Origin: a virus
Lineage: Duplodnaviria > Caudoviricetes
Reading direction: 5' to 3' (one strand)
Length of the DNA: 64,000 nt
IMG/VR virus record: IMGVR_UViG_3300025389_000011
How positions within the stretch are numbered: position 1 is the first letter of the stretch; each line of letters opens with the position of its first letter. The position numbers and the translations under genes are program-made. Below, piece by piece: positions 42,893 to 45,232 of this stretch. Under the pieces are notes generated by a model. The model searched no databases. It was not told the DNA's origin and was given only the letters and a program-made list of their open reading frames with translations.

Positions 42893-43924
42893 TTATGATT
42901 TCATGCAAGTTGTACGTGCAAGTGATTGCCAATTGCTAGGACTGATCTTAACCAAATCAGCAATTTTCAAACTCATACGCAAGGACACTTCACGCAATTT
43001 TGTATGATTGTCCCACATGAAGTCCAGTACCTCAGTTGCCTGAGCATCAGTGAAATCATAGTCTTTGAACAAGCCACCATCAGCATCACGATGGACCTGT
43101 TTGATACGCAACATCTTGTCACGCTCACTATCAATAGTGAGGTCCAAAAAGTGACAACGTGATTGCAATGCTTCCAAGTGATCCTGCATTTTTTTGCTTT
43201 TCACATTGTCAAACTTAATGTTTGTAATGAAAATTGCACTACCGTTGAAGTGAAACATGTTAGGAATACCTTCATCTTTCAACAAACGTGAATCACTGTT
43301 CCAGCAAATCTTACGTGTTTTGCCTGAATCCAGTGCAGCCTTGAGAATGTTCAATGCCAACTCATCACTAAAAACGCTGTCACAGTCATCGAAAATCAAT
43401 ACATTCTTTTTGTCGCTGTACTTGTACAATTGTGCATACAAGCCCAGTGCTGTCATAGCACCTTTGACAATATTGAAACGGACCTTCTTGCCAGCAATCT
43501 TGTCAAACATGCTAGCCTTTTCCATTTGTGTTTCAACCCCGTATGATTTACCAACACCAGGGGGGCCTGAAACAATCATAGCACGAATATCACCACTGAT
43601 ACATGCCTTAGACATTTCATCAAGCACCGCAAAACGTGTTGCAATACGATCCATAGCCTCTACCTCAGTTTCTTTAACTTCAGTCTGCACTTTTTTAAAC
43701 TCCACTGTATTTTCTTTCACGGCTTCTCCATTTAAAAATTGAATGTCTTCAATACTATCTACTTTAACTTTAACTTCATCAATTGCAATTGCAAATTGCC
43801 CATCATTTTTTACAGTAACAAAACTGCCTTTTTTACCTGTTTGAAAACCCTTGACTAGAGTAAACACTTCACCTGCTACTGGCTGATTGCGATATGACCC
43901 AGAAAGAATGCGAATCGTTGACAT
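42893..43924 (-). CDS. AAA+ P-loop ATPase (early gene)
   Basis: GPPGVGKS Walker A, IFDDCD Walker B, SR arginine finger. Confidence 0.8.
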   Translation of the reverse strand: MSTIRILSGSYRNQPVAGEVFTLVKGFQTGKKGSFVTVKNDGQFAIAIDEVKVKVDSIEDIQFLNGEAVKENTVEFKKVQTEVKETEVEAMDRIATRFAVLDEMSKACISGDIRAMIVSGPPGVGKSYGVETQMEKASMFDKIAGKKVRFNIVKGAMTALGLYAQLYKYSDKKNVLIFDDCDSVFSDELALNILKAALDSGKTRKICWNSDSRLLKDEGIPNMFHFNGSAIFITNIKFDNVKSKKMQDHLEALQSRCHFLDLTIDSERDKMLRIKQVHRDADGGLFKDYDFTDAQATEVLDFMWDNHTKLREVSLRMSLKIADLVKISPSNWQSLARTTCMKS

Positions 43925-43989: not shown

Positions 43990-44172
43990 TTAGGAGTTGG
44001 CTGTTGCAAAAGGGCTATATAATTCATCGTAGACTGATTCCAATACGTCATCAATCATTTCTACTGGAATATCCAATGTTCTGGCGATTTGCTCGGGGCA
44101 ACTACCATGATCCAACATAATACGAATTTCCATATCCAATTCAGCCATCTTTGACATTTTGTGTCCTTTCAA
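43990..44172 (-). CDS. Small hypothetical HTH-like protein
   Basis: G.CPEQIARTL.IP.E.I. Confidence 0.6.
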   Translation of the reverse strand: MKGHKMSKMAELDMEIRIMLDHGSCPEQIARTLDIPVEMIDDVLESVYDELYSPFATANS

Positions 44173-44381
44173 AGTTTTGCAATTAATTGATTGTGAATGA
44201 GGTTCATCTCATCCTGCTCTACATAAAAATCAGTCCTAGGATCATAGTACTGACCTTCTTTGTTGTCATAATACAACACTCGACCGCTAAAATTGAACGG
44301 ACCTTCTAGACCTTTGCGTGGGCCATACTTGGTACGCATTTCATCCATTTGGTACTTGTCAGCAACGATTTTATAACTCAT
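44169..44381 (-). CDS. Small hypothetical early protein (70 aa)
   Basis: SD GGAG and its own promoter. Confidence 0.7.
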   Translation of the reverse strand: MSYKIVADKYQMDEMRTKYGPRKGLEGPFNFSGRVLYYDNKEGQYYDPRTDFYVEQDEMNLIHNQLIAKL

Positions 44382-44416
44382 AATACCAGCTCCGTTTTGT
44401 TAGTGTCAATACAAGT

Positions 44417-44445
44417 ATTGTAGTCTAAAATGGATTTATTGTCAA
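44417..44445 (-). promoter_or_regulatory. sigma70 early promoter
   Basis: TTGACA-17-TACAAT. Confidence 0.85.
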
Positions 44446-44458
44446 ATAATTGAGACTA

Positions 44459-44488
44459 AAAAGTTGTTGCTTTTACACAACAACTTTT
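44459..44488 (-). terminator. Intrinsic terminator after the 24-aa ORF
   Basis: 11-bp stem AAAAGTTGTTG/CAACAACTTTT ending in a T run. Confidence 0.75.
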
Positions 44489-44498
44489 GTAGTACTAA

Positions 44499-44573
44499 TT
44501 ACTTACTGTCTTTGGGACAGGGGTTATATTTCCAGTGCCATTTTCTACATTTTGTGCATGTCCAAACTGTCAT
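44499..44573 (-). CDS. 24-aa Cys/Trp-rich microprotein MTVWTCTKCRKWHWKYNPCPKDSK (not in ORF track)
   Basis: AAGGAG 5 nt before ATG, dedicated promoter and terminator. Confidence 0.7.
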   Translation of the reverse strand: MTVWTCTKCRKWHWKYNPCPKDSK

Positions 44574-44601
44574 ATAAACTCCTTTTTGTTAGTGAATATG
44601 T

Positions 44602-44630
44602 ATTATATGTGATAACGGATTTATTGTCAA
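44602..44630 (-). promoter_or_regulatory. Consensus sigma70 early promoter
   Basis: TTGACA-ATAAATCCGTTATCACA-TATAAT. Confidence 0.9.
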
Positions 44631-45232
44631 TAATTTAATTTCCAAATGCAATTAATAAGATATATTAACCGTTCACTTGTAGTTACAGGTACCCCGTGCC
44701 ATGAGTTTGGCATATTACCCCAAACGCTACCTGAAAATTTTTTTGAGGGACTTTGATGCTTTTGTGTCCACTCTCCGGTATTTGGATTATGTGCATAAAA
44801 GGTAGTACCGCAATCAATAGCATCTTGTAAATGTACCACACCTGCTAATACAGTATGATGAGGATCAGTATGTATAGCCTGACTAAATCCAACTGAATCT
44901 TTTATTAGAGTTGACCCAATTATTATATTATCCTTTATAAAAGATAAGGGCTGTGTATGATAGTATTTAAAGTGTTCGTGTTCATTTAGTTTAGGAAGAA
45001 TAATATCATAAATAAAATCTTTTGTCCATTTATTGATTTGTATCATGTTATCACAATCTACAATAGACCTATGCACAAATGGTTGTTGCCGGTCGTTTAT
45101 TCTAATGGGAACATGATACTGTTTAGTTTTTTCTTCATTAATAACAGGATTAATAGGAAGGGGAGGATTAACATCAGTAAAATCAATTACTGCGTTATAC
45201 ATATAAGGCCCCTCAACTGTGGTTAAATTCAT
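44627..45232 (-). CDS. 2OG-Fe(II) oxygenase-like protein
   Basis: HTD...GTTFY...WHGV...R facial-triad pattern. Confidence 0.75.
   Translation of the reverse strand: MNLTTVEGPYMYNAVIDFTDVNPPLPINPVINEEKTKQYHVPIRINDRQQPFVHRSIVDCDNMIQINKWTKDFIYDIILPKLNEHEHFKYYHTQPLSFIKDNIIIGSTLIKDSVGFSQAIHTDPHHTVLAGVVHLQDAIDCGTTFYAHNPNTGEWTQKHQSPSKKFSGSVWGNMPNSWHGVPVTTSERLIYLINCIWKLNY

Follow-up and report, generated by a model that had tools for sequence, protein, structure and literature searches.

A probable 24-codon Cys/His/Trp gene in a PeSL-type cassette of an uncultured T4-like phage

The micro-ORF locus, its promoter family and its neighbours

The window, by which we mean the whole 64 000 nt stretch of phage DNA analysed here, has a G+C content of about 36 %, carries nearly all of its coding on the minus strand and yielded no tRNA genes. 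Between the genes for a 201 aa and a 70 aa protein lies a 24-codon micro-ORF with its own promoter, leader and hairpin (Table 1). A first-pass annotation had called all four elements here, and on re-reading the sequence each of its coordinates for the promoter, Shine–Dalgarno (SD) sequence, ORF and hairpin proved correct. The promoter matches the sigma-70 consensus at 12/12 positions, with a phage-specific extension (ATAAATCC) 3' of the −35 hexamer and an AT-rich stretch on the upstream side; the −35 hexamer itself contains the TGA stop of the upstream 201 aa gene. Transcription is expected to start near 44597–44593. The ORF cannot be longer than annotated because an in-frame TAA lies six codons upstream of its ATG. 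A repeat search placed the promoter in direct-repeat family D1 and the leader in direct-repeat family D2. In the hairpin, A-tract and U-tract arms flank a GTTGTTG/CAACAAC core, and the structure sits 13 nt ahead of a further promoter box, which is a direct repeat of the micro-ORF promoter 185 nt away.

Table 1. Features at and around the micro-ORF in the window, and versions of the peptide at other loci (L numbers)
Feature	Position	Strand	Details
Micro-ORF promoter, sigma-70 consensus, early-type	44602–44630	−	−35 TTGACA, 44630–44625; 17 nt spacer; −10 TATAAT, 44607–44602
Leader	44574–44601	−	SD AAGGAG, 44584–44579; 5 nt spacer TTTAT before ATG
Micro-ORF, 24 codons plus stop	44499–44573	−	ATG, 44573; TAA, 44501–44499; window peptide MTVWTCTKCRKWHWKYNPCPKDSK
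Hairpin	44459–44488	−	AAAAGTTGTTG / CAACAACTTTT; 11 bp stem; starts 10 nt past micro-ORF stop
Next promoter-box copy	44417–44445	−	TTGACAATAAATCC ... TACAAT; upstream of 70 aa gene
70 aa gene	44169–44381	−	
201 aa gene	44627–45232	−	
AAA-type gene	42893–43924		
L089 peptide (metagenome)			MTVWTCTKCKKWHWQYNPCPKDSK
L081/L082 peptide (IMG/VR)			MTVWTCTKCKKWHFHTNPCTPGQNK
L107 peptide (metagenome)			MVWTCTKCRKWHFHTNPCIPGSRR
L084 peptide (IMG/VR)			MVWTCNKCKKWHWQFNNCPKDKKN

The promoter belongs to a repeated family. The box TTGACAATAAATC-N-TA(T/C)A(A/C)T, counted with up to two mismatches in TTGACAATAAATC, is present in seven copies in the window, all on the minus strand, and each has a TATAAT-like hexamer, often followed by ACTTGTATTGA, with an SD and a start codon 25–30 nt further on. 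Perfect 12/12 promoters number four, against an estimated expectation of about 0.2. Relaxed promoter matches were no commoner than in shuffled sequence (26 versus 23.6), and we therefore place weight only on the extended box family. The promoter-plus-leader module is repeated three times within 700 nt (spacings of 458 and 185 nt), and the layout of the micro-ORF matches that of the bona fide genes of the promoter family, which range from 70 to 425 codons. Across 80 related loci we counted 314 cassettes of promoter, SD and start codon, nearly all of them upstream of ORFs of at least 40 codons. The Cys/His ORF was the smallest credible one in this set, beside two membrane-peptide types of 32 and 38 aa. 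The 38 aa and 32 aa micro-ORFs, found behind the same promoter class at L010 2503, L036 881 and L036 3761, encode hydrophobic, membrane-like segments.

Two features of these promoter sequences can mislead. The leader of the 70 aa gene contains a promoter-like site at 44380–44409 on the minus strand (TTGACA-18-TATTAT with TG), the −10 of which overlaps the start codon; this site probably follows from conservation of the leader sequence ATTGACACTAAC rather than being a working promoter. Read in one frame, the shared promoter box gives FDNKW-x-W-x-YNTCI (L001–L080, many sites, e.g. L075 2441–2467), a trap that produces weak false tblastn matches to Trp/Cys-rich queries in this phage clade.

An AAA-type gene in the neighbourhood is a homologue of T4-like nrdC.10 genes at 35–50 % identity. 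The 501 nt micro-ORF region had no nucleotide match in GenBank phages by blastn. None of the genes neighbouring the micro-ORF, including the 201 aa gene, belongs to a Pfam family. The 70 aa gene is very widespread: IMG/VR has 522 related loci, up to 96 % identical, and contigs bearing a homologue reach 335 kb. It matches phrog_13298 (E 4e-10) and gave a near-threshold OCRE-domain match over its Tyr-rich half. Among the 80 of these 522 relatives that were examined, two loci carried the micro-ORF, both from one phage type. The 201 aa gene, for which a related-locus search found no relatives in IMG/VR, encodes a protein with an H-x-D ... H pattern (HTDPH ... WHGV). We also observed a 20 nt direct repeat (17/20 identical) between 44144–44163 and 44537–44556, that is, between the start region of a 60 aa gene at 44172 and the interior of the micro-ORF (CACAAAATGTAGAAAATGGC); it probably arose by chance.

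Homologues of the peptide and evidence for coding

Scanning IMG/VR, JGI/ENA metagenomes and species genomes with back-translated patterns brought the number of distinct versions of the peptide to at least five, that of the window included. The phages at L081, L082 and L089 are closely related to the window phage and syntenic with it. That at L107 is distant, with neighbouring proteins about 50 % identical to those of the window, and the L084 phage is otherwise unrelated, sharing a single 35 %-identical protein in 13 kb. The L084 peptide is nevertheless 70 % identical to the window peptide. Whilst the leader is near-identical in L089, L081/L082 and L107, the L084 micro-ORF is preceded by another promoter box (TTGCCAAATCCACC...TGGTATAAT) and another leader, with AAGGAG 7 nt before the ATG, so conservation extends to the peptide but not to the DNA around it. 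It is the recurrence of one peptide behind unrelated promoters that allows a gene this small to be validated from sequence alone.

Searches for further members returned only out-of-frame or unrelated sequences, both among the matches listed for W-x-C-x2-C-x2-W-H-x5-C in viral contigs and with a K/R-tolerant pattern run over viral contigs and 185 579 species genomes. The peptide gave chance matches only (E≥3) by tblastn against GenBank phages, and a collection of about 15 billion predicted proteins contains none of the five versions. The usual gene callers apply length cut-offs that exclude genes of about 25 codons.

Eleven residues (V3, W4, T5, C6, K8, C9, K11, W12, H13, N17 and C19) are invariant in all five versions, with synonymous codon differences at C6, H13, N17, C19 and other positions. 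The first-pass annotation had proposed looking for conserved Cys and His residues in related phages, and C6, C9, H13 and C19 are indeed identical throughout; it had held that loss of the frame at homologous loci, together with a lack of ribosome occupancy, would suggest an RNA product, and the frame is open in 5/5. The proportion of synonymous differences (pS) exceeded that of non-synonymous differences (pN) in 10/10 pairs. Between the window and L084, pS was 0.96 and pN 0.13, so their similarity is old and does not reflect recent transfer. In a six-frame control on an 18-codon core, the summed pN/pS was 0.29 in the micro-ORF frame and 1.34 and 3.54 in the two other frames open in all members; with no more than five distinct sequences, these figures rest on a few dozen sites. 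Stops interrupt the other three frames. The micro-ORF frame was thus the only one of the six both open in every member and under purifying selection. Third codon positions account for 10 of the 20 variable core sites, the sole core indel is exactly one codon, and the ATG and AAGGAG are kept in every version. The closest pair, the window and L089, is uninformative on coding by itself because the entire cassette is about 95 % identical; the weight falls on L081/L082, L107 and L084. A 62 aa antisense ORF at 44450–44638 on the plus strand was considered and rejected, its frame having stops in relatives and a pN/pS of 1.8.

Two explanations would dispense with a functional peptide. In the first, the promoter-to-hairpin unit acts through a small non-coding RNA of about 140 nt that merely happens to contain an open frame. 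The unit is indeed short and bounded in this way, its RNA folds somewhat better than shuffled sequence (z −2.8 over 161 nt), and its untranslated parts match between the window and L089 as closely as the ORF does. However, L084 keeps only the ORF, its leader, promoter and 3' region being unrelated; the concentration of substitutions at third codon positions, the low pN/pS, the one-codon indel and the constant presence of SD and ATG all count against it, and no Rfam match was found in the 3 kb searched. We regard an RNA product as quite improbable. In the second, the ORF is a chance frame in a duplicated promoter and leader segment, for example a decayed promoter copy, as hinted by the resemblance of FDNKWxWxYNTC to KWHWKYNPC and by the many weak tblastn matches at related loci that are in-frame readings of promoter boxes. 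By itself, an open frame of 24 codons is not unusual, since by our estimate some 16 % of ATGs at 33 % G+C stay open that long. Against this, L084 keeps KWHWQFNNC behind a different promoter family, which led us to reject promoter-box resemblance as the source of the conservation, and five sequences in four contexts preserve the peptide, their substitutions following a coding pattern. A chance ORF is accordingly very improbable. The comparative evidence (invariant residues, pN/pS and the codon-sized indel) instead bears out the first-pass call of a gene, and the micro-ORF is very probably a true protein-coding gene.

The hairpin and the cassette architecture

The window hairpin has a predicted folding energy of −15.6 kcal/mol (z = −4.1), and 0/200 shuffles fold as well. 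In L089 a G-to-A change turns the closing U-G pair into U-A. A different, GC-richer hairpin follows the micro-ORF in L082 (−24.9 kcal/mol) and L107 (−19.0 kcal/mol), and between the two hairpins there are three compensatory double changes and one wobble, every pair being kept. In the covariation controls, which had two distinct rows to work with, the shuffle was weak (67/500), whilst sliding the pairing partner lowered the paired fraction to 21–54 %. The hairpin begins 10 nt after the stop in L089, as in the window, and 7 nt after it in L082 and L107; L084 showed no convincing terminator hairpin at the micro-ORF. The pattern of changes indicates that the hairpin structure is selected.

The role of the hairpin is less simple than that of a terminator closing a self-contained transcription unit, as the first-pass annotation had it. 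The unit does have its own promoter, SD and hairpin. However, the hairpin and the next promoter together form a shared junction, and the L107 hairpin is followed by a further small gene without a promoter of its own. Since this gene is promoterless and the L082 and L107 hairpins lack a clear U-tract, the hairpin may attenuate transcription or stabilize the RNA rather than fully terminate. For the window we consider it a probable intrinsic terminator or attenuator, forming the stem-loop half of the junction.

These observations also bear on a further explanation, in which the micro-ORF is a regulatory leader peptide: a ribosome near the hairpin would modulate termination or read-through, and the act of translation would matter more than the peptide made. 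A ribosome terminating 7–10 nt before the hairpin would touch its base, the promoterless gene in L107 must be reached through the hairpin, and the missing U-tracts in L082 and L107 are compatible with such a role. The gene that would be regulated is not constant, however, being the 70 aa gene in the window and L089, a 124 aa ORFan in L081/L082, another small gene in L107 and an unrelated one in L084, and, with the exception of L107, it mostly has its own consensus promoter. Invariance of 11 residues, including four Cys/His, across saturated synonymous divergence would not be needed in an ORF that served purely as a spacer. We therefore judge a leader peptide improbable.

The arrangement of the locus recalls the promoter-early stem-loop (PeSL) cassettes, PeSLs combined with ORFans, named in T4-type phages (PMC2839356, PMC4122927). 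Arbiol, Comeau & Krisch in 2010 and Comeau et al. in 2014 demonstrated promoter and terminator activity as well as PeSL-to-PeSL recombination (PMC2839356, PMC4122927); recombination between PeSLs yields mini-circles, and reporter assays and inverse PCR on infected cells were used (PMC2839356). The window shares with PeSLs its repeated consensus sigma-70 early promoters with an AT-rich upstream region (the seven copies, four of them perfect, described above), a stem-loop placed directly before the next promoter, small ORFans bracketed in a variable region, and insertions, deletions and replacements between close relatives that are bounded by repeats. A host-type sigma-70 consensus promoter fits early expression, following the same logic as PeSL early promoters (PMC2839356). 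Unlike the published cases, the window phage is a distant, uncultured T4 relative and not a coliphage, its box sequence (TTGACAATAAATC...ACTTGTATTGA) is its own, and the cargo has only 24 codons. The micro-ORF's own promoter also differs in lacking a stem-loop, because it overlaps the stop of the 201 aa gene. The order of stem-loop then promoter recurs in L081/L082, and in L107 a stem-loop precedes the micro-ORF promoter.

The replacements concern the genes on either side of the micro-ORF. The 201 aa gene is missing in L081/L082, where a 291 aa gene adjoins the micro-ORF promoter, and L089 has a 53 %-identical version of it between flanks at least 95 % identical to those of the window (95 % for the 291 aa gene, about 95 % at nucleotide level for the micro-ORF cassette). 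Judged from these comparisons, this position behaves as a swappable slot. On the other side, the 124 aa ORFan, which matches no Pfam or PHROG family, sits with its own promoter box between the micro-ORF and the 70 aa gene in L081/L082 (L082 2565–2939). At L084 the phage's own repeated box (TTGCCAAATCCACCAAATCTGGTATAAT, of extended −10 type) flanks the micro-ORF on both sides, at 96–123 and 285–312, which would place the same cargo in a PeSL-like bracket of different regulatory DNA. By its sequence features, the micro-ORF unit is a PeSL-type ORFan cassette and thus of an ordinary, known architecture. If it behaves like published PeSLs, homologous recombination between the promoter boxes repeated on either side would be able to insert, delete and move the cassette, and such box-to-box recombination would explain the sporadic distribution of the micro-ORF.

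The peptide, its putative metal site and possible targets

The peptide has the core C6-x2-C9-x3-H13-x5-C19 and an extreme composition, with three Trp, one Tyr and six Lys/Arg in 24 residues and a net charge of about +5. Neither a signal peptide nor a hydrophobic segment is present. Single-sequence and profile searches found no significant match in Pfam, PHROG, NCBIfam, PADLOC or PDB. Below threshold, the window peptide alone (other members 0/3) resembled the zinc pocket of HVO_2753 (PF07754; E 0.034, 14.4 bits against a cut-off of 33.2), one member matched a TNFR Cys-rich repeat (E 0.0025), and further hits were to the Fe-S ligand segment of family-4 UDG (E 0.08) and to phrog_15216 (E 0.29), the latter being the sole match in the PHROG, NCBIfam and PADLOC searches.

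The first-pass annotation had described a zinc knuckle. Retroviral-type CCHC zinc knuckles (PF00098), of the gag-knuckle fold group, have the spacing C-x2-C-x4-H-x4-C, and in nucleocapsid knuckles aromatic and basic residues around the ligands contact single-stranded nucleic acid. The peptide resembles these in having the same set of Cys, Cys, His and Cys within a 14-residue span and aromatic and basic residues around the putative ligands. It differs in that the His is moved by one position (x3/x5 instead of x4/x4) in 5/5 versions, in lacking the family-typical Gly, and in standing alone and not as a module of a larger protein. Given the shifted His and the failure of zf-CCHC PF00098 to match the peptide even at E≤10, it is not a member of that family. 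The archaeal zinc-finger micro-proteins HVO_2753 (PF07754) and HVO_0758 are 40–60 aa long and have two C(P)XCG motifs with four Cys (PMC6562870, PMC10716476). The peptide is likewise a very small stand-alone protein around a single, here putative, metal site; unlike them it has 24 residues, one CxxC plus a His and a Cys, and a score below the PF07754 cut-off.

The same Cys/His spacing with flanking Trp occurs in larger uncharacterized proteins at L113, which contains DUF2283, and at L153 and L309, the match at L153 being partly imposed by the search pattern. This lends weak support to a recurring structural unit. The L153 and L309 proteins match no known family, and none of the three gives a functional clue.

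A translated peptide might also do without a structural metal site, acting through redox or disulfide chemistry, or as a Trp/Lys-rich amphipathic, membrane-acting or short linear motif peptide. The composition given above would suit such roles, there is no zinc-finger family match and the spacing departs from canonical knuckles, whilst the best sub-threshold hits, none of them significant, include disulfide-rich TNFR repeats and an Fe-S UDG segment. Structural disulfides are unlikely in the reducing cytoplasm, however, and this is where a peptide with neither signal peptide nor hydrophobic segment should stay. Exactly the four potential ligands are invariant, two of the Cys codons having changed synonymously, and the same spacing with flanking Trp recurs in the three larger proteins. 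We consider a peptide of this non-metal kind unlikely, and on balance favour the view that C-x2-C-x3-H-x5-C binds metal as a knuckle.

Taken as a whole, we would put at roughly 60 % the probability that the micro-ORF is a genuine, translated accessory gene of an uncultured T4-like phage, carried in a PeSL-type cassette. Under this model, host sigma-70 RNA polymerase would start at the consensus promoter soon after infection, producing an RNA of about 140 nt that would end, or be attenuated, at the hairpin. The strong SD would drive translation of the 24-residue peptide, for which the comparative evidence of coding speaks. Judging from their invariance and spacing, C6, C9, H13 and C19 may then fold the peptide around one metal ion, most likely Zn2+, and the resulting gag-knuckle-like mini-domain would display the invariant W4, W12, K8 and K11 on a very basic surface. 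More speculatively, this surface could bind a macromolecule of the host, whether nucleic acid or an acidic protein surface, in the course of host takeover.

That the peptide is a host-directed binder or inhibitor is a tentative proposal, and the narrower suggestion in the first-pass annotation of a host-enzyme inhibitor or anti-defence factor is a guess: there was no PADLOC match, and nothing found speaks specifically for anti-defence. That an early gene of about 25 codons in a T4-type phage can encode a peptide acting directly on a host protein has a precedent in T4 Stp, an early peptide of 26 residues that counteracts EcoprrI, a restriction enzyme. The two peptides are not similar in sequence, and Stp lacks a Cys/His cluster. 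Characterized phage early micro-proteins mostly act on host machinery (PMC11323111). It seems rather doubtful, on present comparisons, that the peptide represents the smallest stand-alone gene-encoded zinc-knuckle protein described, selected across unrelated phages as promoter-bracketed cargo and serving as an early blocker of a host protein or nucleic acid. The family is new and without annotation, yet its practical weight is limited by its rarity and its restriction to uncultured phages, and the cassette architecture is already known. Should the metal site be real, the peptide would be a natural zinc-binding domain of minimal size, readily synthesized and studied, and one more phage early micro-protein.

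As a separate observation on the larger proteins with this spacing, those at L153 1206–1496 (+), on a viral contig, and L309 2046–2330 (−), in a Saccharibacteria MAG, are homologues of about 96 aa. Both end in a C-terminal module of the form W-Q-C-x2-C-x-R-W-H-x5-C-G-C-x-G-G-x-Y, which contains the Cys/His spacing of the peptide.
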